Positions 1 to 62,061 of a DNA stretch of 64,000 nucleotides are shown one piece after another. Position 1 is the stretch's first letter, and every line of letters begins with the position of its first letter. Location of the stretch: contig CBFDTD010000001.1 in the NCBI GenBank assembly GCA_965612745.1, positions 6,937 to 70,936 of the forward strand, written 5' to 3'. The notes beneath the pieces were generated by a model. That model did no database searches. It had not been told where the DNA came from and worked only from the letters and a program-made list of their open reading frames with translations. Both the position numbers and the translations under genes were made by a program. This DNA is from an uncultured bacterium (GTDB taxonomy: Bacteria > Chloroflexota > Anaerolineae > B4-G1).

Positions 1-996
1 ACCAATCTGGAAATCGGTATCAACTGCTGGATTGGGGCGAAAGTGGAAGACGAGGGGGCGATCACCGTTCCAGCGCGCACCTTCATTGACCTGGTCAACG
101 CGCTGCCGCCGGAGCGGGTGGATATGGAACTGATCGTGCGCACGCAGACGCTCAATCTGCGCGCCGGCCGGAGTGAAGCGAACATCAAGGGGATTGATGC
201 ACAGGAGTTCCCCATCGTGCCGGTGCCTGAGGGAGAGGGAGGTATTCCTGTCGAACCAGATGTGCTGCGCACGGCAATTTCCCAGGTCACCTTCGCCGCT
301 GCCACCGATGAGAGCCGCCCTATTCTCACCGGGGTGCTGGCCAAGTTCGAGGACGCGCAACTCACGCTGGCCGCCGCCGATGGGTTCCGCCTCTCGGTGC
401 GCACCGTCTCGCTGCCTCAGTCCGTCTCCGATCCTTTCAACATCATTATCCCTGCCCGGGCGCTGGTCGAACTGGGACGCATCAGTGGCGAGCAGAAGGA
501 GCCCATTGTCATCATCATCACCCCCACCCGCAACCAGGTGCTCTTCCAACTCACCGACGTGGTGCTGGTGTCGCAATTGATTGACGGCAATTTTCCCGAT
601 TATCGGCAGATCATCCCCCGTGATTACACGACCCACACGGTGGTGGATACGGCTGCATTCCTGAAAGCGTGCAAAACGGCGCTCATCTTCGCCCGCGACG
701 CGGCCCACATCACGCGCCTGCACATCAAGCCGGGCACGGAGTTGGCCCCTGGCTCTATGCTCGTCTCCGCCACCTCAGCCGAGACCGGCGACGACGTGAG
801 CGAACTGGATGCCAGTATTGAGGGGGATGAGATTGAGATCGCCTTCAACGTCAAATATCTGATTGATGTGCTCTCGGTGGTCGGTACCCCTCAAGTCGCA
901 CTGGATACGACCACGCCCTCCAGCCCAGGCGTCATCAGGCCCGTGGGTGACCTGAATTTCACCCACGTGATTATGCCGATGCATTTGGGACGGTAG
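1..996 (+). CDS. dnaN: DNA polymerase III beta sliding clamp, 5'-truncated by the window edge (the reading frame is open from base 1)
   Basis: The translation of 43..996 has the beta-clamp domain II/III pattern and the frame continues to position 1 without a stop. It is followed by a hairpin plus T-tract. Confidence 0.85.
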   Translation, partial: TNLEIGINCWIGAKVEDEGAITVPARTFIDLVNALPPERVDMELIVRTQTLNLRAGRSEANIKGIDAQEFPIVPVPEGEGGIPVEPDVLRTAISQVTFAAATDESRPILTGVLAKFEDAQLTLAAADGFRLSVRTVSLPQSVSDPFNIIIPARALVELGRISGEQKEPIVIIITPTRNQVLFQLTDVVLVSQLIDGNFPDYRQIIPRDYTTHTVVDTAAFLKACKTALIFARDAAHITRLHIKPGTELAPGSMLVSATSAETGDDVSELDASIEGDEIEIAFNVKYLIDVLSVVGTPQVALDTTTPSSPGVIRPVGDLNFTHVIMPMHLGR

Positions 997-3768: not shown

Positions 3769-5187
3769 ATGGAGACAACCGCAACCATCCCGCTCAGACG
3801 TGTGCATTTGCCACGAGGACTCAAGGCGTTCGTGGCGCTGACGTTCATCGTCGCTACATTGGCGGCTACCTATCAGACGACGCTGACGCCAGTCACACTG
3901 GTGGTGGATGGTCAAGTGCAGCGGCTGCATACCCACCAGGATACCGTCGCTGCGCTGCTAATGGATGCCGACCTCACTATTCGCCCTGAGGACCTCGTCA
4001 CCCCCGCACCGGACACGCCGCTTAAGCCGGGCTTAATTGTGGAGGTATGGCGGGCCCGCCCCGTGCGTATCAGCGCCGATGGACACATCATCGCGCTCCG
4101 CACCCACGCCACATCGGTCAAGGCAGTGCTGGAGGAGGCGAAAATATCGCTGGGGCCGCACGACAGGGTAGAGGTCGAGGGAGAACTGCGCCCGACCAAT
4201 CCCAGCCTGGCCGACCCTCAACCTGCCCGCGTCACAGTCCACCGCGCCGTTCCCTTCACATTGCACGAGGACGGCCAGGCGACTACGCTCTACACCACCG
4301 CCCCCACCGTCGGAGAGGCGTTACGTCAGGCTGGGCTGACCCTCTACCTGGCCGATTATGTCCAGCCAGGTCTTGGTGAGCGCATATCGGCGGGGATGCA
4401 TATTTACGTTGAGCGCTCTATACCGGTGACGGTGCAGGTGGACGGACGGACAGTCCGCACCCGCACGCATCGGCAGCGCGTGGGTGAGGTACTGGCCGAT
4501 CTGGGCATCGTTCTCACCGGTCAGGACTATACTACACCTACACTCGACGCTCCCCTGGGAAAAGACACCGCCATCCGTGTTGTGCGCGTTAGCGAGCGCT
4601 TCCTGATCGAGCAAGAGCCCATCCCTTTCGAGACAGTGTGGCAGGCTGACCCAGACCTGGAGATTGACCATCAGCGGTTGTTGCAGGAAGGGATGCGGGG
4701 CATACTAGAACGCCGCATCCGCGTACGCTACGAGGATGGTCACGAGGTCGCACGGGCGGTTGAGGACGAGTACGTCGCTGTCCCGCCCATGAACAAGATC
4801 ATCGGCTATGGGACCAAGATCGTCATCCGTACTCTTGACACCCCATCCGGCCCGGTCGAGTACTGGCGCGTGATCCGCATGTTGGCGACCTCTTACTCGG
4901 CCGCGACGGCCGGCACGCCGAGGACCAGTCCCTATTATGGACGCACAGCCACGGGGATGAACATGGGATACGGCATCGTCGCCGTGGATCCACGGGTGAT
5001 CAATCTGCACAGCAGAGTCTACGTGCCCGGCTATGGTATCGGCATCGCTGGTGATACCGGCGGTGCGATCAGAGGGCGGCGCATTGACTTGGGGTACGAC
5101 GACGATAGCCTGGTGCTCTGGTACCGCTGGGTGGACGTCTATCTGCTGACCCCCGTGCCCGATAGGATTGATTACATCCTCGACTAG
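3769..5187 (+). CDS. YabE-like cell-wall protein with an N-terminal TM anchor, DUF348 repeats, a G5 domain and a C-terminal 3D (MltA-like) domain
   Basis: The G5-like segment (ETVWQADPDLE...IIGYGTK) and the C-terminal 3D-domain motifs (GIAGDTGGAIRGRRIDLGYDDD...VDVYLL) are present. Confidence 0.7.
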   Translation: METTATIPLRRVHLPRGLKAFVALTFIVATLAATYQTTLTPVTLVVDGQVQRLHTHQDTVAALLMDADLTIRPEDLVTPAPDTPLKPGLIVEVWRARPVRISADGHIIALRTHATSVKAVLEEAKISLGPHDRVEVEGELRPTNPSLADPQPARVTVHRAVPFTLHEDGQATTLYTTAPTVGEALRQAGLTLYLADYVQPGLGERISAGMHIYVERSIPVTVQVDGRTVRTRTHRQRVGEVLADLGIVLTGQDYTTPTLDAPLGKDTAIRVVRVSERFLIEQEPIPFETVWQADPDLEIDHQRLLQEGMRGILERRIRVRYEDGHEVARAVEDEYVAVPPMNKIIGYGTKIVIRTLDTPSGPVEYWRVIRMLATSYSAATAGTPRTSPYYGRTATGMNMGYGIVAVDPRVINLHSRVYVPGYGIGIAGDTGGAIRGRRIDLGYDDDSLVLWYRWVDVYLLTPVPDRIDYILD

Positions 5188-5196
5188 AGCCGGCCG

Positions 5197-6090
5197 ATGG
5201 ACGTGCGCCGATTGCTGGAGCAATGGGACCTCCGGCCAAGCAAGGGGCTGGGCCAGAATTTTCTCGTGGACCAGGCCGCACTAGAGAGAATCGTCGCCGC
5301 TGCTGAACTGACCCCCGATGACATCGTTTTGGAGGTCGGTGCGGGACTGGGGACGCTGACCAGACGGCTGGCTCAGAATGCCGGACACGTGGTGGCCGTC
5401 GAACTGGACCAACGGCTGATCCCTGTGTTACGGAGCGTCCTGGCCGACTTCGACAACGTCACGCTAGTCCAGGGCGACATCCTGTCGCTTGACCCCGTCG
5501 CCCTGATCGGCGCCGCCAACCTCCAATCTCCAACCCCAAACCTCCAATCTCCAACCCCAAACCTCCAATACAAAGTCGTCGCCAACCTTCCCTACTACAT
5601 CACCTCGGCCGTGCTGCGCCACTTGCTGGAGGCCAACCTCAAACCCCAGCGGATGGTGGTCACGGTGCAGCGGGAGGTGGCAGAGCGCATCGTCGCGCAG
5701 CCGGGACAGATGAGCCTGCTGGCAGTGAGCGTGCAATTCTACGGGCGGCCGCAACTGCTCTTTCGCATCAAGCCGGGCAGTTTCTATCCCCCGCCGGAGG
5801 TGGAATCAGCGGTGGTGCGGGTGGATCTCCATGCTGCACCGTCTGTGCCCGTGGGGGATACAGATACCTTCTTCCGCGTAGTGCGGGCCGGCTTCGCCCA
5901 GCGCCGCAAGCAACTCCGCAATGCCCTGGCCGCCGGCTTGGGGCTGTCACCCGAAGAGGCGGCGGCCAGATTGAGGGAAGTAGGCGTGGATCCCCGGCGG
6001 CGCGCACAGACGCTCAGCCTTGAGGAGTGGGCCAGGATCGTCCGTGCCTTAGGCACTGCTGCCCCCAGGGCTTTCCCAAAGTCCAGATAG
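5197..6090 (+). CDS. rsmA: 16S rRNA (adenine1518/1519-N6)-dimethyltransferase RsmA/KsgA, carrying an in-frame 21-bp tandem-repeat insertion
   Basis: The N-terminal GQNFLVD motif, the SAM-binding EVGAGLGTLT motif and the NLPYYI motif are all present. Confidence 0.9.
   Translation: MDVRRLLEQWDLRPSKGLGQNFLVDQAALERIVAAAELTPDDIVLEVGAGLGTLTRRLAQNAGHVVAVELDQRLIPVLRSVLADFDNVTLVQGDILSLDPVALIGAANLQSPTPNLQSPTPNLQYKVVANLPYYITSAVLRHLLEANLKPQRMVVTVQREVAERIVAQPGQMSLLAVSVQFYGRPQLLFRIKPGSFYPPPEVESAVVRVDLHAAPSVPVGDTDTFFRVVRAGFAQRRKQLRNALAAGLGLSPEEAAARLREVGVDPRRRAQTLSLEEWARIVRALGTAAPRAFPKSR
5516..5568 (+). repeat. 21-bp tandem repeat (aacctccaatctccaacccca), about 2.5 copies, in frame inside rsmA, encoding NLQSPTPNLQSPTPNLQ
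   Basis: The repeat is directly visible in the sequence. Confidence 0.85.
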
Positions 6091-7573: not shown

Positions 7574-7700
7574 CGAGTCAGCGAGTCGGCGAGTCAGCGA
7601 ATCAACGAATCAGCGCACTTGCAGACCTGCAAACTTGCAGACCTGCAAACTTGCAGCCTTGCAGACCTGCAAACTTGCAGCCTTGCAGACCTGCGGGAGG
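7574..7700. repeat. Two adjacent tandem 8-mer arrays in the spacer between the carbamoyltransferase paralogs. The first is (CGARTCRG)x5. The second is (CTTGCAGMC/CTGCAAA) in about 10 copies.
   Basis: The arrays are directly visible. ttgcagacctgcaa is itself near-palindromic. Confidence 0.85.
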
Positions 7701-7706
7701 AGTATA

Positions 7707-21848: not shown

Positions 21849-22508
21849 CTATTCCTCTTCCGGTGCCTGCAAGCAGTAACCCAGTCGGCGGATCGTGCGC
21901 AGGTAGACTGGCGACCTGGAGTCTTCCTCGATTGCCTTGCGCACCCAATGGATGTGGACATCGAGAGTGCGCGTATCACCCACATAGTCGGTCTCCCATA
22001 CCTGCTTCATCAAGAAGGCCCGGGTCAAAATCTCGCCCGGATGGCGCATAAAGGTTTCGAGGAGGCGAGCCTGCTTAGGGGTGAGATGGGTTTCGCGCTC
22101 ACCGCGGATAACACACCGCTGATTGGTTTTGAAGACCACATCGCCTACCCGTAGCACTTCGAGCAGTCCATCTATCCGGTCAAGCAGTTTCTCGGCGGAA
22201 AAGGGATAATGCAGATAGGCATGCGCCCCCACGCTACGGTCAATCTTCTCTCCTTCTGGCAGCAGCATCAATACAGGGATTTCGTGAGCGGCCTTCTGCA
22301 AAGCCTGGCAGAAGCGGTGGCTGTTAAAGCGGAGTGAGGGGGAATCCAACACTATCAACGCTGGATGTGCTTCATGTACTTTGGCCCATGCTTCTTTTCG
22401 TGTGCGGGCCACAACAATATGGTACCCCTGGTCGTTAAGAACCGGGACCAGATGCCCTGCCATGGGCTTTCTCCCCCCCACAATCAGGATAGTGTAGACT
22501 GGCACCAC
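21849..22508 (-). CDS. OmpR-family DNA-binding response regulator
   Basis: It has a receiver domain plus a winged-helix Trans_reg_C domain (...YVGDTRTLDVHIHWVRKAIE...). Confidence 0.8.
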   Translation of the reverse strand: MVPVYTILIVGGRKPMAGHLVPVLNDQGYHIVVARTRKEAWAKVHEAHPALIVLDSPSLRFNSHRFCQALQKAAHEIPVLMLLPEGEKIDRSVGAHAYLHYPFSAEKLLDRIDGLLEVLRVGDVVFKTNQRCVIRGERETHLTPKQARLLETFMRHPGEILTRAFLMKQVWETDYVGDTRTLDVHIHWVRKAIEEDSRSPVYLRTIRRLGYCLQAPEEE

Positions 22509-22641
22509 CTGCTATATTCTCCTTGCTGCCTGTACTGGGCCACGGAGCGGGTTGTATTATACTTCATCCCATTGCTGAGGGCAAGTCAAGCAGACAGCCA
22601 CCCAACGGTTGACAGCAGGACACCAGAGTACCACAAGGTAA

Positions 22642-22728
22642 GGGGGTCGTAGTGGCGACTTCAGTCGCTCTGACCTCGCTTTGAACGACTGAAGTCGTTA
22701 CTACGAGCAAAATCGCCAGTGTGTAGGG
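22642..22728. repeat. About 87-bp direct repeat, copy 1, containing a 21-bp imperfect inverted repeat (tcgtagtggcgacttcagtcg...cgactgaagtcgttactacga)
   Basis: It is near-identical to 23075-23163. The pair flanks a roughly 350-bp non-coding segment. Confidence 0.7.
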
Positions 22729-23074
22729 CAACGGATGGACAGCGGATAAACGGATGAGATGACCGACTTTATCATCGTTGGCTCGGTGCGGCGATTTTGC
22801 CGCCGGACACCTTTGGGCAAGGGGTATCACCGTGGGATATGCTTCGCTCCTTAGCCCGGGCCACTACTCCCTCGGTGTTCACTCTCTCACCATCTGGATA
22901 CGCCCTCGGCAAGAGTGCCCGCCGGGGAATGCGGTGCTTCCGGAGGTTGCAATGCCGGAAGGCTATCCGCTTATCCGTTTCTCATCCGCTGCCCCGGTAA
23001 ACAGATACTGCTGCGAGGCCACGAAAGGGCGGCCGGCGCGGCCTACTTCTGCGCACTGATGAACCGCAAGATAT

Positions 23075-23163
23075 GGGGGTCGTAGTGGCGACTTCAGTCG
23101 CTCTGACCTCGCTCTGAACGACTGAAGTCGTTACTACGAGCAAAATCGCCGGTGTGTAGGGGG
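23075..23163. repeat. About 87-bp direct repeat, copy 2, with the same internal hairpin
   Basis: The sequence identity is read directly. Confidence 0.7.
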
Positions 23164-23212
23164 ATGATCAGTCGCCGGCGCTACAGAGTGCTGCGTTGTT
23201 GACCGCTAATGG

Positions 23213-23752
23213 CTAGCCGCTGGCCAATGTTGCACCTTTGCGTAATGCCTCCTTGTTCAACCCTAGCAGTTTGCGGTGGCGCTCCGGCAGGTGATCGTCC
23301 AGTGCCTGCTCCACTGCCTCCAGTGGCACGACGCCGGTGGCCTGCACCAGCGCACCCAAACAGATCACGTTCGCCAGCCGGGTGTTCCCAACCTCCTCGG
23401 CCATGTCGGTGGCGGGGACGTAGAAAACGCGGATGTCGTCTCGCTCGCTCTTCTGCGGAACGAGCGAACTGTTCACCACCAGCACACCGCCCGCTTTTAC
23501 TGCCGGCTCGAAGGCCTCCATCGAGGGAAGGTTGAGCACGATGGCCGCGCTGGGCCGCCGCACCAGCGGCGAGCCGATTTCCTCGTCGGAGACAACGACG
23601 GTGCAACGGGCCTTGCCGCCGCGCATCTCTGGACCGTAGGAGGGAATCCATGTCACGTGATAACCGCTGTCCATCGCAGCGTAGGCGAGCAATTGCCCGG
23701 CGAAGAGCGCCCCTTGCCCCCCAAAGCCAGAAATGATGATCTCTTCCTGCAT
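23213..23752 (-). CDS. 2-oxoacid:ferredoxin oxidoreductase, gamma subunit
   Basis: The N-terminus [14 protein letters not shown] is typical of POR/VOR/KOR gamma subunits. Confidence 0.85.
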
Positions 23753-23863
23753 CCTGTGCCTCCTGCTTCCTGCCTCCTGCTTCCTGCCTCCTGCCTCCTG
23801 CCTCTTGCCTCCTGCCTCCTGCTTCCTGCTTCCTGCTTCCTGCCTCCTGCCTCCTGCTGCCTC
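23753..23863. repeat. Heptamer tandem array (CCTGCYT)x about 15, filling the whole beta-gamma spacer. On the mRNA (minus) strand it reads as repeated AGGAGGC/AGGAAGC, which is Shine-Dalgarno-like.
   Basis: The array is directly visible, and its boundaries coincide with the beta stop codon and the gamma start codon. Confidence 0.85.
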
Positions 23864-24685
<822 letters not shown>

Positions 24686-24723
24686 GGTTCCAGGTTACAG
24701 GTTGAACCTGGAACTTGAAACCC

Positions 24724-25788
24724 TCAATGGCATTCCTCGTCCAACTTCTCTAATTCGGGCAAAATCTCGTCGGGCAGGGGGATGACGCCGCCTAACCGGC
24801 CATAGAAGTGCACCGGGCATCTCCCCTCGACGGCCAGCCGCACGTCCTCAAGCATCTGCCCGGCGTTCATCTCTACGACCAGCATGCCGCGCACCTGCTC
24901 GGCTAGTTCCCCAAGGCGGGTGCTGGGGAAGGGCCAGAGAGTGATGGGGCGCAAGAGCCCGACCTTCAGCCCTTTCTCTCGTCCCTCCCGCACCACCGTC
25001 TGGCAGACCCGCCCCACGGTGCCGAAGGCGACCAGTAGCAGGTCGGCGTCCTCGGTGTCGTACTCCTTCCAGCGCACCTCGTTGGCGGCAATCTCCTTCA
25101 GTTTGGCCTGCAAACGCAGGTTGACCCGCTCCATGTTCTCCGCACCCAGGTAGAGGGAGGTGATGATGTTGTGCTCACGTCCCTTAGCGCCGGTCAGCGC
25201 CCAGGAGGGCCGTTCCTCAGGCGGACGGACGGGTCGCATCGGCGGCAGTTCTGCCGGTTCCATCATCTGGCCGATGGAGCCATCGGCGACGAACATAACG
25301 ATGGTGCGGTACTTCTCCGCCAGGTCGAAGGCCAACACCATTAGGTCGATCGCCTCCTGAACGTTGGCCGGGGCCAGGACGATCATATGGAAGTCGCCGT
25401 GACCGGCGGACTTGACTGCCTGGAAGTAGTCGCTCTGCGCGGGCTGGACGTTGCCCAGGCCCGGCCCACCGCGCATGATGTTCGTCACCACCGCCGGTAC
25501 CTCGGAGCAGGCGATGTAGGAGAACCCCTCCTGCATCAGGCTGACGCCGGGGCTGGATGAAGAAGTCATCACCCGCGCGCCGGCGCAGGCTGCGCCGTAG
25601 ACCATATTGATAGAGGCCACCTCGCTTTCGGCCTGCAGGAAGACGCGCCCCAATTCCGGGAGGCGCTTGGAGAAATGCTCCAACACCTCCGTCTGAGGTG
25701 TGATGGGGTAGCCAAAGAAGGCTTCGACCCCGGCCCGTATGGCGGCCTCGGCGATGGCTGCGTTCCCTTCGAGAAGTTCTTTTGCCAT
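24724..25788 (-). CDS. 2-oxoacid:ferredoxin oxidoreductase, alpha subunit
   Basis: The N-terminus [26 protein letters not shown] is present. Confidence 0.85.
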
Positions 25789-25798
25789 TTTTTACCTC

Positions 25799-26047
25799 CT
25801 ACGCGACGGCGGCCGCCCGTCTGGGCTGCCGCTTGCGCCGATATACGGTGAAAACCACATCGGGGCAGATGATAGCGCACACCGTGCATCCGGTACACGC
25901 TTCCGGGTCCGTCACTTCGACGGGCCGATACCCTTTGGCATTGAACCGGTCCTCTGCCAGTTGGAGGATGTGCACGGGGCAGACGGTCACGCATAGACCG
26001 CATCCCTTGCAGCGATCCTCGTCAATGATGACCATTCCTTTTGCCAT
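25799..26047 (-). CDS. 2-oxoacid:ferredoxin oxidoreductase, delta subunit (2x[4Fe-4S] ferredoxin)
   Basis: Two CxxCxxCxxxCP motifs are present. Confidence 0.8.
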   Translation of the reverse strand: MAKGMVIIDEDRCKGCGLCVTVCPVHILQLAEDRFNAKGYRPVEVTDPEACTGCTVCAIICPDVVFTVYRRKRQPRRAAAVA

Positions 26048-26120
26048 ATTGTCCTCCGTATTTCATGTTGCTGAAGTGGCTGAAAGTCAACCAGGATTAT
26101 ACAACCGCCAACGTTGCCCG

Positions 26121-26651
26121 TCAATCTCCATTGCCAAAGGGCTGTCTCAGCCGTGCCTCGATCTGTGCCAACGCCGCGTCCAGTTGCTCCAGATAGCCGA
26201 CCAGCGGTGTCTCGGCGATGGCGATCTCTAGCGGCACATCTACATCCAGCGGCACTGTGGTGGCAATGCTCACCGTCTGGCTGACCGGCACGGTGAACTC
26301 CAGATCCACCGGAATGACGGTGCGGATGGGCACCTCTAGGTTGTAGGTAGTCACGCCCAGGTCAATGGGCACGATGACGGTGGTGTTGATTGGGATAGTT
26401 GTATTGATGGGTACGGTGACTTCTTCATTGAAGGGGATGCTGGTCGCGATGGGAATCTCCTGGTTCACTTCGAGGGTGTAGGAAAAGGTATCGTCGCCGA
26501 TGTCGGTGACGAGAGCGCGGGCGTCGGCCACCGTATCCAGGGCAATCTGCCGCGCCCGCATCAGGCTGAGGATGATGGTGGCATTGAGCGTCAGCGAAAG
26601 TAGCGTCAATATAGCCAGCACAATCAGGATCACGAGGTAGGCTTTCCTCAT
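26121..26651 (-). CDS. Hypothetical membrane-anchored protein with internally repetitive VPI/TTIP(I/V) segments
   Basis: It has an N-terminal TM helix followed by short repeats (PINTTIPINTTVIVPIDLGVTTYNLEVPIRTVIPVDLEFTVPV). It lies 15 bp downstream of the MTase-like gene. Confidence 0.45.
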   Translation of the reverse strand: MRKAYLVILIVLAILTLLSLTLNATIILSLMRARQIALDTVADARALVTDIGDDTFSYTLEVNQEIPIATSIPFNEEVTVPINTTIPINTTVIVPIDLGVTTYNLEVPIRTVIPVDLEFTVPVSQTVSIATTVPLDVDVPLEIAIAETPLVGYLEQLDAALAQIEARLRQPFGNGD

Positions 26652-26666
26652 CGGTGAACTCCTTGC

Positions 26667-28976
26667 TCAGAACAGTGGGATCTGGGCCACTTCTTGCTCG
26701 ACGATGGGGTCGAGGCCCAGCACGGTCTTGAGAGCGTGGCGGTCCAGTTCCTCCTTGGCGACCAGGCGGCGCAGATGACGAAACTTGATGAACTGCCATC
26801 CGCCCGCTTCGACGGCACTGGTCAGGCGCGGGTCGCGCTGCAATTTGAGGCCGACCAACTGTGCCCGCCCGCCGGGCAGGACAAGGCAACGCTGCGCCCC
26901 CTCATCAGCGGTGCGTTCGACGAGCAGGTGAGGCCCCAGGAGCGCCGTGGCCGAGACGGCGAAGACGTAAGCCTCCCGTCCTTCCTCCAGCCAGCGCACG
27001 TCCCAGCCATTGCCGCGCCGTCTCACCCTGAACCCCAGCCGTTTCCCTAACTTCACCAGATCACCACGCAGCGCCTTGAGTTCGGCGGCGCGCCGCTGAG
27101 GGTCGTCTTCGGGACGCAGTCGCCGTATCCTGTCTTCCTGCACACTGTACGAGTCTATGCAGACTTGAACCAGCGCCAGGTCGGGTGTGAGTGAGCCGGG
27201 GAAGCAGGCGTAGATAGCGTTGACCAATTCCTCCTCGTCCCACGTTGTACGCCGCCTCAGTAGTTCAAGCACCGTTGTTTCGACCCGGTCGGCCAGAGGT
27301 TCTTGCGCACCACAGGGGTCGGCCAGCCACCACAGCGGCTCATCGCCTGGCGCGGCCGTTTCCACTTGCACCAGCGGTGCCTTCTCGATGGCCTGCCGCG
27401 TGGTGTGAGCAGTGAAGCCAAGCGGGGGTGGGCCGTCATCGGGAAGGGCTGCGATGACGGTCAGCGCTCCCTCCCTGGTCAGCCCCGCATACACGCCGGC
27501 GTGCAGCATAGCCCAACCTGTCGGCTCCCCACGCTCCCGGAGGGTACTTACTGCTGCCTCCCCTGTCACGGTCGCTAGTTTGTGCTCCAGTACCTTCATA
27601 TCGGTCGTCGCATCTTGCCTCTTGCGTCTTGCCTCTTGCGGCTCCCAGCGCCAGACCAGCCGGTAGCCAACCTCGGGGCTGTAGCCCCAGCCCTCCAGGG
27701 TGTAGCCCGCGCCGCCGGCTGCCAGGCAGACCGATTCCAGCAGCGCGTCGTCGGGGTCGGAGAAGAGCGTGACCAGGTAGCCGTCGGAGGCGAGCAGCGG
27801 GCCGGCGGCCTCCAGCGCTCTCCGCAGCACGCGCCAATGCCACTCCCAATCGAACCTGCGGCGGCGCAGGAAGGGACGCATGGCTCGGGCGGCCGGCAAC
27901 TCCCATAGCCATCCCGCCCACAGCGCCGAGAGCGCCCAGAAGACCCCATCGGGCCGGGGCGGATCGGCGAAGATGAGAGAGACGCTGCCGGGCGGGACGA
28001 TCTCTCCTGCGTCGCGGGTCGCACGGCTGACCAGCGCGTACCCCTGGGCCTCGCCTCTCACCAGCGCCGTGACATCTGAAGCCTGCGGTATAGGAGACGG
28101 CGTCTCTGCGGTCAGCAAGCGCGAGAACCCCTCTTCAAAGCACAGCCAGACGTTGCGCTCGACATAGCGGGAGGGGACGCGCAGTGTGCGGGGGCGCGGT
28201 CGCTCCTCTCCGTAGGGGTCGAGGCTGGAGCCGGCATCGAAGCAATCGAGCAGTGTGCCGGTTAGTGCGACCTTGGCCTCCTCGTCGGCCTCCAGCCCTT
28301 CCAGCCGCAGCGCCAGATCCATCAATGCGGAGAGGTTGCGCGGCGTGTAGAGCGCGACCAGTTCGGCGGCCCGCTCCCGCGCCGGGTGGCCCGGGGGAGC
28401 CACGCGGTCGAGCGCGTAGTAGTAGGCCAGACCTCGCGGCAGGATGCGGCGGGCGGATGCGACATCCTCGTCGTCCGGCACCCCCTCCCGTACCTCCTCG
28501 CACCTGGGGCAGTGCACTGCTTTCCTGAACGGACGGCCCTCGTCGCGCTCCCAGGCGAACCACACAGCGGTGCCCGCCGCGCCGCAGGCCGGGCAGGTCG
28601 AGCGGTAGAGGGAGGTCAGGTAGCGGTGCAGAGGCACGTCCCCCTTGGGGCTATCGGCCAGGCGGGTGAAGGCGGCGTTGAGCGCGTCGGGTTCGCAGCG
28701 GCTCAGTCCCAGGCGAGCGATGACGAGGAGCAGGGGGTTGACGCTCAGGCCCAGTGCGCGGCGGTCAGCGGCGACCGTCTCCCGCACGAGCGTCGGCCCC
28801 TGGCAGAACAGGTCTACCACCAAGTCGCCGGGCCGAGTGAGGCTCTGCACGTATGCCCCCACCGCCCCGACCGGCTGAGTGGGGCGGTAGCGGGCCAACG
28901 GTCCGCCAGGTGCGCCTGGCCTTCCGGGGATGAACCAGGCTCGCTCGGTCGGGTGTGACTCGCGCAGGTCGTTCAC
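26667..28976 (-). CDS. Large (about 770 aa) methyltransferase-like protein with degenerate SAM and catalytic motifs and an inserted zinc ribbon. Its function is unknown.
   Basis: A motif-I-like VVDLFCQGPTL resembles the DxFxGxG loop but has the glycines replaced. DPPRP stands in for the (D/N)PP(Y/F) motif. There is a CPACG...CPRC zinc ribbon. The C-terminal roughly 300 aa show no recognised pattern. The start was chosen at an in-frame GTG (28976) preceded by a tatact -10-like box. The ORF-track N-terminal 50 aa look non-coding. Confidence 0.45.
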   Translation of the reverse strand: MNDLRESHPTERAWFIPGRPGAPGGPLARYRPTQPVGAVGAYVQSLTRPGDLVVDLFCQGPTLVRETVAADRRALGLSVNPLLLVIARLGLSRCEPDALNAAFTRLADSPKGDVPLHRYLTSLYRSTCPACGAAGTAVWFAWERDEGRPFRKAVHCPRCEEVREGVPDDEDVASARRILPRGLAYYYALDRVAPPGHPARERAAELVALYTPRNLSALMDLALRLEGLEADEEAKVALTGTLLDCFDAGSSLDPYGEERPRPRTLRVPSRYVERNVWLCFEEGFSRLLTAETPSPIPQASDVTALVRGEAQGYALVSRATRDAGEIVPPGSVSLIFADPPRPDGVFWALSALWAGWLWELPAARAMRPFLRRRRFDWEWHWRVLRRALEAAGPLLASDGYLVTLFSDPDDALLESVCLAAGGAGYTLEGWGYSPEVGYRLVWRWEPQEARRKRQDATTDMKVLEHKLATVTGEAAVSTLRERGEPTGWAMLHAGVYAGLTREGALTVIAALPDDGPPPLGFTAHTTRQAIEKAPLVQVETAAPGDEPLWWLADPCGAQEPLADRVETTVLELLRRRTTWDEEELVNAIYACFPGSLTPDLALVQVCIDSYSVQEDRIRRLRPEDDPQRRAAELKALRGDLVKLGKRLGFRVRRRGNGWDVRWLEEGREAYVFAVSATALLGPHLLVERTADEGAQRCLVLPGGRAQLVGLKLQRDPRLTSAVEAGGWQFIKFRHLRRLVAKEELDRHALKTVLGLDPIVEQEVAQIPLF

Positions 28977-31704: not shown

Positions 31705-31739
31705 AACCCACCTCCTCAATCTTGACGTCCCCTTCCGGA

Positions 31740-31850
31740 GGCCCCGCTTCAGCGGGGATTTTCCGGCTGAAGCCGGACGTTCCACTCCGGCGGGCTCGCT
31801 TCAGCGGTGATTTTCCGGCTGAAGCCGGACGTCCCACTGATTTTAGCATA
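31740..31850. repeat. Two tandem REP-like double-hairpin units (ccccgcttcagcgggg / ccggctgaagccgg)
   Basis: These are family copies of 6128-6186 and 56802-56850. Confidence 0.5.
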
Positions 31851-46749: not shown

Positions 46750-48693
46750 ATGCTGTACCAACGGCGATGGGTCTTTGTCGCTTTCGCCGCAGCGCTCCTG
46801 CTGTTTGCTGCCTGCGCTCCCCAAATCATAACCGTCACCGTGACGGCGCCACCGGAGACAGTCGTCGTCACGGCTACACCTTCACCTACACCTCTACCCA
46901 CCCCCTTGCCCCCGCCGGGGCCTAAGGTGCTCACCGTCTGCTTGGTTGGCGAGCCCGATACACTGTACCTCTACGGTGGCTCTCGTATGGCGGCTACGCG
47001 GCACGTGATGGAGGCGCTCTACGATGGCCCCATTGACCACCTCAACTATGCTTACCGGCCGGTGATCCTGCAGAAAGTGCCCAGCATCGCCGATGGTGAT
47101 GCGGTCACGCGCACCGTGCGTGTGCGGGAGGGCGACCGCGTGGTTGACGCCGAGGGTGCAGTCGTGGAACTGACAGAGGGGGTGCGTATCCGTCCGCCCG
47201 GCTGCCACGCCGATGAGTGCACGGTCGAGTTCGAGGGCGAACCGCTGTGGATGGAGAGAATTGAGGTCACGTTTGCCCTGCGGGAGGATGTCACCTGGGC
47301 CGATGGCGAGCCGCTCACGGCGGCCGATTCGGTCTTCGCTTTCCAGGTGGCCTCCGATCCCGCCACGCCCGGCAGCCGCTACCTGGTGGAACGCACGGCC
47401 CGGTATCGTTCCCTGGGCAAGTGGCGCGTAAAGTGGGTCGGGCTGCCTGGATTCATTCCCTCCACCTACTTTTTGAACTTCTTCACCCCCCTGCCGCGCC
47501 ATCAATTAGAGGGCCGTTCTCCCGCCGAGTTGTTGCAGGCCGATGAGACCCGGCGCTATCCCCTAGGTTGGGGACCGTTCGTCGTCGAGGAGTGGATACG
47601 GGGAGATCACATCACGCTCTCCCGCAATCCCCATTATTTCCGCGCCGCCGAGGGGCTGCCCTATCTGGACCAGGTGGTGTTCAAGTTCACCTCCGGCGCG
47701 CCGGAGATGATCGCCCGTCTCCTCTCAGGCGAGTGCGACATCGGCGCTCAGGATGCCGACTTCGAGCCGTTCATGCCGCTGCTGGTGCAGGCTGAGCAGC
47801 AGGGCCTGCTGAAGATGATTTCCGCGACCGGCAACGGGTGGGAGCACATTGACTTTGGCATTGACCCCGTTCCTGACTACCGGCGGGCGGATTTCTTCGG
47901 GGACGTGCGGGTGCGACAGGCTATCGTCCAATGCATTGACCGCCAGGCTATCGTGGACGAGGTCGCTTATGGCCGCAGCGTCGTGCCAGATAGTTACCTG
48001 CCGCCGGAGCATCCCCTCTACGCGGGCAACGATCTGGTGCATTGGGACTACGATCCGATGGCCGGACGGGCACTGCTGGAGGAGGTGGGGTGGCTGGATG
48101 AGGACGAGGATGGCGTGCGCGAGGCGCACCGCGTTCAAGGGATCCGTATCGGCACACCGTTCGAGATCACGCTCTTAACGTCTTCGGAGAGTACGGTCTC
48201 GCAACAGGTGGCGCGCATTGTCAAAGCCAACCTAGCAGATTGCGGCATCCGCGTCAATTTGGAGGCCCGGCCTTCGTGGGAATTCTTCGCCGACGGGCCG
48301 GAAGGGCCTCTCTTTGGTCGCCGATTTGATCTGGCCGAGATGGCGTGGCGGTTTGAGGACATCCCTCCATGTGAGCACTACATGTCTTCTGAGATACCGG
48401 ACAAGGGGCACTGGCACGGGAGCAATCCCACCGGCTACAGTAATCCCGACTATGATGCAGTGTGCCGGGCAGCACTCCAGGCACTGCCTGGCACCCGGGA
48501 GTACGAGAAATATCATAAGCAAGCACAGGTCATTCTCTCGGAAGAACTTCCCACCATCCCGCTCTTCATATGGCCGCGGATCGCTCTAGCCCGACCGGGG
48601 GTGCTTAACTTCGCGCTGGATCCCACCGCACAGAGCGAGTTGTGGAACATCGAGGTGCTGGACTTGCAAGACGTGCCACCGGCTAACCGCTGA
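46750..48693 (+). CDS. Family-5 substrate-binding lipoprotein in the canonical domain order
   Basis: A lipobox (LFAACAP) and a PT linker are present, and both the N- and C-terminal SBP_bac_5 patterns are found. Confidence 0.8.
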   Translation: MLYQRRWVFVAFAAALLLFAACAPQIITVTVTAPPETVVVTATPSPTPLPTPLPPPGPKVLTVCLVGEPDTLYLYGGSRMAATRHVMEALYDGPIDHLNYAYRPVILQKVPSIADGDAVTRTVRVREGDRVVDAEGAVVELTEGVRIRPPGCHADECTVEFEGEPLWMERIEVTFALREDVTWADGEPLTAADSVFAFQVASDPATPGSRYLVERTARYRSLGKWRVKWVGLPGFIPSTYFLNFFTPLPRHQLEGRSPAELLQADETRRYPLGWGPFVVEEWIRGDHITLSRNPHYFRAAEGLPYLDQVVFKFTSGAPEMIARLLSGECDIGAQDADFEPFMPLLVQAEQQGLLKMISATGNGWEHIDFGIDPVPDYRRADFFGDVRVRQAIVQCIDRQAIVDEVAYGRSVVPDSYLPPEHPLYAGNDLVHWDYDPMAGRALLEEVGWLDEDEDGVREAHRVQGIRIGTPFEITLLTSSESTVSQQVARIVKANLADCGIRVNLEARPSWEFFADGPEGPLFGRRFDLAEMAWRFEDIPPCEHYMSSEIPDKGHWHGSNPTGYSNPDYDAVCRAALQALPGTREYEKYHKQAQVILSEELPTIPLFIWPRIALARPGVLNFALDPTAQSELWNIEVLDLQDVPPANR

Positions 48694-48714
48694 CTGCTAA
48701 CTGCTAATCGTGAG

Positions 48715-62002: not shown

Positions 62003-62004
62003 TA

Positions 62005-62058
62005 TGCGTAATGCGTAAAACGTAATGCATAATTACGTTTTGCGTTTTACGTTTTACG
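62005..62058 (+). promoter_or_regulatory. AT-rich palindromic heptamer array (tgcgtaa tgcgtaa aacgtaa tgcataa ttacgtt ttgcgtt ttacgtt ttacgtg) forming a hairpin plus U-rich tail between rpsG and fusA
   Basis: An inverted repeat aaaacgtaat/attacgtttt with loop gcata is read directly, and the segment is a GC-poor island. Confidence 0.4.
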
Positions 62059-62061
62059 TGC

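Follow-up and report, generated by a model that had tools for sequence, protein, structure and literature searches.

The question raised by this locus was why the whole spacer between two cistrons of a core metabolic operon should consist of a seven-nucleotide repeat that reads, on the mRNA strand, like a series of Shine-Dalgarno (SD) sequences. The spacer separates the beta- and gamma-subunit genes of a minus-strand 2-oxoacid:ferredoxin oxidoreductase operon, recognized by Pfam and composed of four cistrons in the order delta-alpha-beta-gamma, on contig CBFDTD010000001.1 of an uncultured Chloroflexota bacterium. The analysed stretch of that contig, 64,000 nucleotides in length, is referred to as the window. 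The initial annotation had proposed that the array acted as a ribosome sponge or translation enhancer for the last cistron, or as a slippage-prone tract tuning the subunit stoichiometry. Based on the comparative data, we considered it probable that the array is a slippage-generated, hypermutable heptanucleotide simple sequence repeat (SSR), that is, a variable-number tandem repeat (VNTR), which was seeded by the native SD/start region of the gamma gene and is tolerated in a form that preserves the ribosome-binding site (RBS), with a near-neutral copy number.

The spacer was found to occupy exactly the 111 bp between the beta stop and the gamma start, as initially annotated, and to be wholly repetitive. 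A period of 7 with 14.4 copies, 91% matches and a score of 160 was reported by Tandem Repeats Finder (TRF). On the mRNA strand, 15 heptamers were parsed (nine GGAGGCA, five GGAAGCA and one AGAGGCA), in agreement with the 15 units counted before, together with a 3-nt GCA insertion after the first unit and a CAGG tail. The first unit takes the G of the beta stop codon, and the spacer itself reads GAGGCA GCA (GGAGGCA)2 (GGAAGCA)3 (GGAGGCA)2 AGAGGCA (GGAGGCA)2 GGAAGCA GGAGGCA GGAAGCA GGAGGCA CAGG. Its composition was 56 G, 38 A, 17 C and no T. Due to the absence of U, no start or stop codon, canonical or near-cognate, was present in any frame of the window array, and the gamma ATG was both the first U-containing codon past the beta stop and the first possible start in any frame. 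More than ten AGGAGG-like sites had been claimed; there were nine exact AGGAGG and five AGGAAG sequences, and a total of 15 SD-like sites was reached only when AGGAAG and AAGAGG were counted. The run had also been described as ending 2 nt before the ATG, while the last AGGAGG was found to end 6 nt before it, the sequence directly abutting the start codon being CACAGG. A G-quadruplex was regarded as a minor possibility, as the GG tracts would support two tetrads at best.

When the heptamer was searched for as a dimer with up to two mismatches, 15 matches were recorded in the 64-kb window, 14 of them in the array and one elsewhere. The number expected from shuffled sequences was 1.2, and none of the 100 shuffles reached 15. 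Within the window, the GGAGGCA unit formed an array at the beta-gamma spacer only, and the other arrays were built of other units.

The strain-level variation of the spacer was assessed in ten contigs (JGI, ENA, NCBI and Logan) carrying the exact gamma protein. All of them were metagenome assemblies, mostly of short reads, and their operons were 98-99.7% identical to that of the window. A spacer of 111 nt, as in the window, was present in one contig (L001), 83 nt in seven contigs with two sequence types (83A and 83B), 76 nt in L006 and 62 nt in L007, the number of units being approximately 15, 11, 10 and 8, respectively. All differences in length were multiples of 7. The ends of the alleles were constant in all ten contigs, the 5' end reading TAG-GAGGCAGCAGGAGGCAGGAGGCA and the 3' end GGAGGCACAGG-ATG, while the interiors differed in the number as well as in the sequence of the units (CGAGACA, CGAGGCA, GAATGCA). 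The alleles 111, 83A and 83B were found on beta and gamma coding sequences without a single nucleotide polymorphism in 1330 nt, and the alleles 83B and 62 likewise shared identical beta and gamma flanks. Hence, the array changes much faster than point substitutions accumulate, and the suggestion that the tract was prone to slippage was borne out. The lengths of 111, 83, 76 and 62 nt equal 0, 2, 1 and 2 modulo 3 and are not multiples of 21, which fits non-coding DNA in the window species.

Further, the locus was compared among relatives by scanning one genome per GTDB species, which yielded 80 loci with gamma relatives of 51-92% identity. The array was absent from most of these, and the beta-gamma spacer measured -1 to 9 nt. 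A short junction, TAG-GAGGCAACG-ATG or a close variant of it, in which the SD overlaps the stop codon, was recurrent (read in loci L014 and L064), and the delta-alpha junction of the window, TAG-GAGGTAAAAA-ATG, proved to be an unexpanded form of the same design. The first nine bases of the array, counted with the stop codon (TAGGAGGCA), were identical to the stop-overlapping SD junction of relatives, and the array flanks TAGGAGGCA...ATGCAGGAA matched the 9-nt spacers of relatives. As the short junction is common among relatives, the unit GGAGGCA was matched to an ancestral SD, and the ancestral junction was read as TAG-GAGGCA-acg-ATG-CAG-GAA. A related unit, GGATGCA, carries a start codon. It was also observed that the loci closest by beta and gamma identity (L016, L017 and L022) contained a three-unit proto-array, GGATGCA GGAAGCA GGGCGCA GG, in which ATC or ATA had replaced the old start and a new ATG, also in frame, was present 21 nt upstream. 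The array is a bacterial heptanucleotide SSR/VNTR: its units are tandem, its length is polymorphic in unit steps and its origin is local.

Expanded spacers were not confined to this junction. A 133-nt spacer between two OTCase-like genes on the plus strand (7574-7706) was filled, from the stop TAG to the SD GGGAGGAG, by two octamer arrays, (AGCGAGTC)~5 and then (ACTTGCAG/ACCTGCAA)~10, and its alleles in different strains, of 133, 109, 93 and 69 nt, differed by multiples of 8. Within the operon itself, the alpha-beta spacer contained GGTTTCA-like and TGAAACC-like arrays with a predicted fold into a hairpin of -43.9 kcal/mol (z -6.6), a stability that none of 200 shuffles reached. A 7-nt indel allele of this spacer was present in L008, and the same architecture with other unit numbers recurred in L015-L018, L022, L026 and L059. 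In 789 kb of sequence from relatives, 29 arrays with periods of 6-9 and at least 3.5 copies were detected by TRF; at a threshold of at least 3 copies, a period of 7 was the commonest (19 arrays), followed by a period of 8 (14 arrays). Since unrelated units at other spacers vary in the same manner, the variability of the beta-gamma array needs no locus-specific selection.

The occurrence of the unit at unrelated sites was assessed in public metagenome contigs, where at least 120 stretches of GAGGCAGGAGGCAGGARGCA were found. The 80 arrays that were inspected originated from diverse samples and none was located at the beta-gamma locus; they were 20-174 nt long and often adjoined other heptamer arrays. 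An open reading frame (ORF) started within 25 nt downstream of the array in 10 of 65 cases in the sense orientation, compared with 7 of 65 in the antisense control. Because of the large number of stretches and the lack of an excess of downstream starts, it was concluded that (GGAGGCA)n is a recurrent microsatellite, in general not tied to ribosome-binding sites. A specialised RBS element was rejected as a description of the repeat on the same evidence. The initial annotation had held that an array found at many non-genic sites, or missing from all relatives with no consequence for expression, would argue against its proposal, and had asked about other operons of the genome; the data were largely of the adverse kind, and other spacers of the genome were filled by unrelated, length-polymorphic units of 7-8 nt. 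None of the specific roles proposed for the array, as a sponge, an enhancer or a tuner of stoichiometry, gained support.

The SD used in this genome is GGAGG, which was found at positions -4 to -20 of 15 of the 51 naive ORF starts of the window versus 3.3% of random positions; the anti-SD was deduced from this SD usage, as the 16S gene lies outside the window. In this narrow sense only did the reading of the array as tandem SD sequences hold. The usual distance between SD and start in the window was 5-8 nt, and all four cistrons of the operon had GGAGG 5-6 nt before the ATG (5 nt for delta, 6 nt for alpha, beta and gamma). The last unit was likely the working RBS of gamma, since it was the only invariant part of the array beside the gene and its spacing was that of the other cistrons. 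No start codon was present at SD distance downstream of the other eight exact AGGAGG copies; judging from the sequence, the upstream units would be able to pair with the anti-SD without initiating.

Of 200 shuffles, 199 were predicted to be more structured than the spacer (z +2.47), which in the centroid was unpaired across the array. The gamma SD and AUG were located in this unstructured tract, hence the RBS was predicted not to be sequestered. The 25 longest inverted pairs listed included no partner within the operon that was complementary to the array. As the fold was weaker than that of the shuffles and these pairs held no such partner, an explanation of the array by RNA structure or long-range pairing was rejected. 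No internal promoter was found in or near the array; as the sole promoter-like site ahead of the operon lies before delta, the array is probably transcribed within the polycistronic mRNA.

We proposed that the array arose in one Thermoflexia-like Chloroflexota lineage by slipped-strand amplification of the gamma ribosome-binding/start region, and that it would be transcribed as a part of the delta-alpha-beta-gamma mRNA. The gamma RBS would consist solely of the invariant 3'-most unit, AGGAGG-CACAGG-AUG, and the upstream units would most likely be a tolerated, near-neutral by-product of a clade-wide tendency toward 7-8-nt arrays in short spacers. An SD-like, unstructured unit free of codon signals would be tolerated because it leaves the RBS open, and it would give no false starts to ribosomes terminating at the beta stop 111 nt upstream. 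Stop and start are tightly coupled in relatives; in the window species, reinitiation after 62-111 nt or de novo loading would take their place. A U-free, unstructured tract ending with an SD would be about the least harmful insert at the beta-gamma junction. As far as sequence comparison reaches, the data favour an ordinary though striking microsatellite. What the sequences establish is the repeat itself, its polymorphism, its agreement with the ancestral junction, its generic character and, for the window species, its non-coding status; slippage as the mechanism, the last unit as the SD in use and a near-neutral copy number are inferred.

Several observations weigh against this explanation. 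The array was kept in every sampled strain, with 8 to 15 units and never down to one, and such persistence might be due to selection that maintains a minimum length, and not to a mutational bias. The units were purine-rich and U-free, the only U occurring inside an ATG, which could indicate purifying selection on the leader. The near-neutrality of the copy number would be a default rather than a result. The ancestral polarity was derived from the distribution among relatives rather than from a rooted tree, and short-read metagenome assemblies, the source of most alleles, can collapse or chimerise repeats.

If slippage accounts for the array, the locus would be a natural case of a short intercistronic junction inflated more than tenfold without destruction of the operon, and across sister lineages the homologous repeat would have shifted between a place in the leader and one in the coding sequence. 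As documented by the population data, hypervariable arrays of 7-8-nt units are numerous in the intra-operon spacers of uncultured Thermoflexia/Anaerolineae.

Heptamer repeats of cyanobacteria, the short tandemly repeated repetitive (STRR) sequences, constitute a comparable class. Heptamers are described by Rehm et al. (2015, PMC4692102), citing Mrazek 2007, as the over-represented class of long SSRs in bacteria, with polymerase slippage as the proposed cause. Heptameric intergenic SSRs include GGGAATC in Xanthomonas and GGGGA(C/T)T in Nostoc, e.g., between pecE and pecF (PMC4692102), and 22 (GATAGRA)n satellites were described in Chloroflexus aurantiacus (Subirana & Messeguer 2019, PMC6749651). 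Like these, the beta-gamma array is a head-to-tail 7-nt array in a short intergenic or intra-operon spacer, where such arrays often abut the upstream ORF, and its length and sequence differ among close relatives, slippage being the proposed cause (PMC4692102, PMC6749651). However, in those genomes one unit is dispersed over many loci, whereas within the window every array is built of a different unit, apparently derived from the local sequence, and the beta-gamma unit matches the SD of its own gene. The known units also contain G3-4 tracts with a demonstrated G-quadruplex potential, in contrast to the GG tracts of the beta-gamma unit.

The TAACTGA direct repeats of marine Beggiatoaceae and cyanobacteria, of which there are approximately 170 per genome (MacGregor 2015, PMC4679880), are similar in being heptamers placed immediately upstream of starts, with strain differences that are mostly indels in 7-nt steps, and a role in translation has been suggested for them (PMC4679880). 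They have little SD character, usually replace a recognisable RBS and contain stop codons in the forward orientation (PMC4679880), while the beta-gamma unit resembles an SD, contains neither stops nor starts and is arrayed once within the 64-kb window.

The first alternative is a copy-number rheostat, in which gain or loss of SD units would heritably shift gamma translation and the gamma:beta stoichiometry, as at a contingency-type locus, by changing how far ribosomes travel past the beta stop before reinitiating and how many docking sites, competing or assisting, are offered to 30S subunits. The locus is indeed hypermutable in unit steps on identical backgrounds, and the array sits exactly between a stop and a start which are tightly coupled in relatives. 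Precedents for graded control by 5'-untranslated region (5'-UTR) repeats exist at hmw1A (PMC12721329) and uspA2 (in PMC4679880). For the (ATCTTTC)n 5'-UTR repeat of Haemophilus influenzae hmw1A/hmw2A, which is phase-variable, expression is inversely proportional to the repeat number (Rapun-Araiz et al. 2025, PMC12721329), and the mechanism requires RNase III as well as a long hairpin in which the repeats pair with a G-rich arm (PMC12721329). For the AGAT repeats of uspA2, an expression optimum at 18 copies is cited in PMC4679880. The beta-gamma array shares with hmw1A a transcribed heptamer SSR between promoter and start codon, with a naturally variable copy number. Unlike hmw1A, it is predicted to be unstructured, has no partner among the inverted pairs listed, and is intercistronic in a core metabolic operon; neither the hairpin or other defined cis element nor the surface, host-interaction or restriction-modification gene of hmw1A-type contingency loci was found here. 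Moreover, gamma is a core subunit of an obligate hetero-oligomer, in which it is not obvious what would be gained by varying a single component, similar variation is seen in other spacers with unrelated units, and the putative functional last unit is invariant. A rheostat was considered unlikely. If the copy number did affect gamma output, the strains would provide a ready natural allelic series of approximately 8, 10, 11 and 15 tandem SDs, which could be used to probe 30S standby, SD decoys, reinitiation distance and STAB-SD-type protection, and the locus would represent rare contingency-type variation in core metabolism.

Alternatively, the array could have been selected as a ribosome landing pad or an mRNA stabiliser, its extra SDs binding 30S subunits without initiating. 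It would then serve either as a standby platform feeding the real RBS or as a STAB-SD-type roadblock shielding the gamma segment from 5'-to-3' decay after cleavage. The tract is predicted to be single-stranded and is rich in perfect anti-SD complements, and unstructured upstream tails are known to enhance initiation by standby, maximally at 16-18 nt (Sterk et al. 2018, PMC5934652). Yet standby of the de Smit & van Duin model, with which the array shares the predicted single-stranded tract upstream of the RBS, saturates at that length and compensates for a structured, sequestered RBS (PMC5934652), whereas here the RBS is predicted to be open and the tract extends over 62-111 nt. As regards stabilisation, non-initiating SD-like or polypurine sequences stabilise mRNA in Bacillus, where the STAB-SD of B. 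thuringiensis cry3A blocks RNase J1 (PMC4113751), and in mycobacteria, at katG (PMC2358910). The array resembles them as a non-initiating SD-like leader sequence complementary to the 16S 3' end, the anti-SD being that deduced from SD usage, and the neighbouring alpha-beta hairpin could, according to its modelled fold, be an mRNA processing or stability element. However, STAB-SD and katG are single elements with demonstrated half-life effects, one or two SDs being enough for STAB-SD, in contrast to the 14 extra, polymorphic copies of the array, for which such an effect is hypothetical. Most relatives lack such a tract, and the SD core varies from unit to unit, as 5 of the 15 units are the weaker GGAAGCA and other alleles contain CGAGACA. 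Selection for either function was thus judged unlikely.

A broader proposal was built on the sister lineages, where the homologous repeat is called as coding sequence. In P0039 (91% identity; locus L219), TAG-GAGGGGACAGG-ATG was followed by (CAGGAGG)x12 in frame, so that the N-terminus as called, MQEAGGRRQEAGGRRQEAGGRRQEAGSRRQEEIIIS, starts with MQEAGGRRQEAGGRR and carries a (QEAGGRR)n tail, the original ATG having been lost. Among the best 120 homologues, the called gamma N-terminal extensions were 0 amino acids (n=107), 7 amino acids (n=10), 14 amino acids (n=2) and 28 amino acids (n=1). These extensions were always whole triplets of heptamers, that is, steps of 21 nt or 7 residues, to which the repeat is limited where it is coding. 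A single base (G-to-T) separates the SD unit AGGAGGCA from the start unit AGGATGCA. Among the strains of the window species, the GAATGCA unit of the 83B and 76-nt alleles (L003, L005, L006, L008 and L009) places a further ATG in the gamma frame, 30 nt before the regular start, and judging from this sequence a gamma isoform extended by MQEAGSRRHR could be produced there.

In this proposal, the beta-gamma junction of the Thermoflexia-like clade would be a mutationally labile SD/start-codon cassette whose start site is moved by unit gain and loss. One repeat would toggle between an untranslated multi-SD leader (window species), a leader with alternative in-frame starts (83B, 76 and L220) and a translated (QEAGGRR)n tail (L219). 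The variability would be selected to tune the synthesis, stability or assembly of gamma, and intercistronic VNTRs of 7-8 nt would be a general heritable adjuster of operon stoichiometry. Taken as a whole, this was considered improbable.

A translated array in the window species, either as a linker through read-through of the beta UAG or as an N-terminal extension of gamma, was judged very unlikely. The 111-nt allele is in frame and stop-free, the sister lineages have a homologous array called as coding, and the 83B and 76-nt alleles contain the in-frame ATG described above. Nevertheless, the allele lengths modulo 3 conserve no beta-gamma frame, the 62-, 76- and 83-nt alleles breaking it, which ruled out a read-through fusion or translated linker. 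The U-free window array offers no start codon, and the beta TAG was retained in all alleles. The features of a translated repeat, namely an in-frame upstream start and frame-keeping lengths, were found together in P0039/L219 and were lacking in the window species.

An assembly artefact, by which short-read assemblers would have made the repeat or its length differences, was the least credible explanation, because, even though all data were metagenome assemblies and one contig (L095) had an N gap at the OTCase-OTCase array, the locus with its array and conserved ends was obtained from all 10 contigs (JGI, ENA, NCBI and Logan), independent assemblies shared identical alleles, alleles differed by internal unit substitutions too, and homologous arrays were present in other species.

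In the literature searched, the coverage of which was incomplete, neither tandem-SD arrays nor, for Anaerolineae/Thermoflexia, heptamer VNTRs were found to have been described.

The coordinates of the operon and of the homologous arrays are collected in Table 1. The gamma protein was identical to one annotated from metagenome-assembled genomes (MAGs) of a "Thermoflexia bacterium", and its best homologues, which carry the name 2-oxoacid:ferredoxin oxidoreductase subunit gamma, belonged to Anaerolineae and Anaerolineales MAGs. The G+C content of the window was 59.9%. No terminator-like site was found in 22400-26400, and no Rfam family matched the array region, the matches of the window (signal recognition particle RNA, transfer-messenger RNA and one tRNA) all being located elsewhere. 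An antisense ORF of 63 amino acids on the plus strand (23733-23924) was rejected, as it is built of the repeat and the non-triplet length variation precludes its conservation.

Table 1. Positions of the operon features in the window and of homologous arrays in two other loci (L219 and L220, numbered within their own sequences).
Feature	Position	Strand	Remarks
Promoter-like site upstream of delta	26096-26124	-	TTGACG-17-TATAAT; consensus match only, 11/12
Delta subunit gene	25799-26047	-	Fer4, 2x[4Fe-4S] ferredoxin-like; Pfam
Alpha subunit gene	24724-25788	-	354 amino acids; POR_N, PFOR_II; Pfam
Alpha-beta spacer	24656-24723	-	Inverted pair of degenerate heptamer arrays, then AGGAGGAG-CGAA-ATG
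Beta subunit gene	23864-24655	-	263 amino acids counted from the ATG of the gene callers; TPP_enzyme_C; Pfam
Beta stop codon TAG	23864-23866	-	From sequence; its AG forms the beginning of the first AGGAGG in the array
Beta-gamma intercistronic spacer	23753-23863	-	111 nt, wholly repeat; from sequence and TRF
3'-most AGGAGG, putative working SD of gamma	23759-23764	-	6 nt before the ATG; invariant in ten alleles; within GGAGGCACAGG-ATG
Gamma start codon ATG	23750-23752	-	Chosen by gene callers in 10 independent contigs
Gamma subunit gene, last cistron	23213-23752	-	179 amino acids; PF01558 POR, Pfam E 3e-44
L219 homologous array, 3' of the start codon	2489-2600		Called as a translated (QEAGGRR)n N-terminal tail
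L220 homologous array	290-360		~9 units, several ATG-bearing, in different frames

Other short-period repeats were also noted. At 62004-62059, between convergent genes, (ATGCGTA)x4 was followed directly by the inverted complement (TTACGTT)x4, and the hairpin of these heptamer arrays would possibly serve as a terminator. The heptamers GCTAACC/GCTGACT/GCTAACT at 48682-48707 extended across the stop codon of a gene and the short spacer to the next ATG, the unit resembling the TAACTGA repeats of Beggiatoaceae and cyanobacteria. At 5516-5569, 2.5 perfect copies of a 21-nt unit, with a sub-period of 7 nt (CCAACCT), lay in frame within an ORF whose N-terminus looked RsmA/KsgA-like by eye; they encode NLQSPTP repeats and give the impression of a heptamer array that became fixed within coding sequence as an insertion. 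On the minus strand, (GGCAAGA/CGCAAGA)x4 at 27613-27640 lay in an operon-adjacent ORF of 819 amino acids and encodes QEARRKRQ; this unit resembles the AGAGGCA variant found in the beta-gamma array, and the product of the ORF was called as 743, 769 or 819 amino acids, depending on the strain.

In two relatives, the alpha-beta spacer contained further purine-rich, SD-like arrays, namely (GCAAAGGA)x3.8 in L033 (~4955-4984), and GGGAGACA-like units with (GCGATAR)x6 in L219 (1600-1688). Their sequences suggest that SD regions seeded arrays more than once.

Downstream of gamma, two 95%-identical copies of a 99-nt element were located at 22630-22728 and 23063-23161, with an internal palindrome having arms of 24-27 nt. 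This region was rearranged or absent in strains L003-L005, and the paired element may be a mobile element of the repetitive extragenic palindrome (REP) or miniature inverted-repeat transposable element (MITE) type, or a terminator. Finally, a tandem repeat of a 52-nt unit x2.2 (TRF score 181) was recorded at 31724-31838, near the start of a minus-strand ORF.

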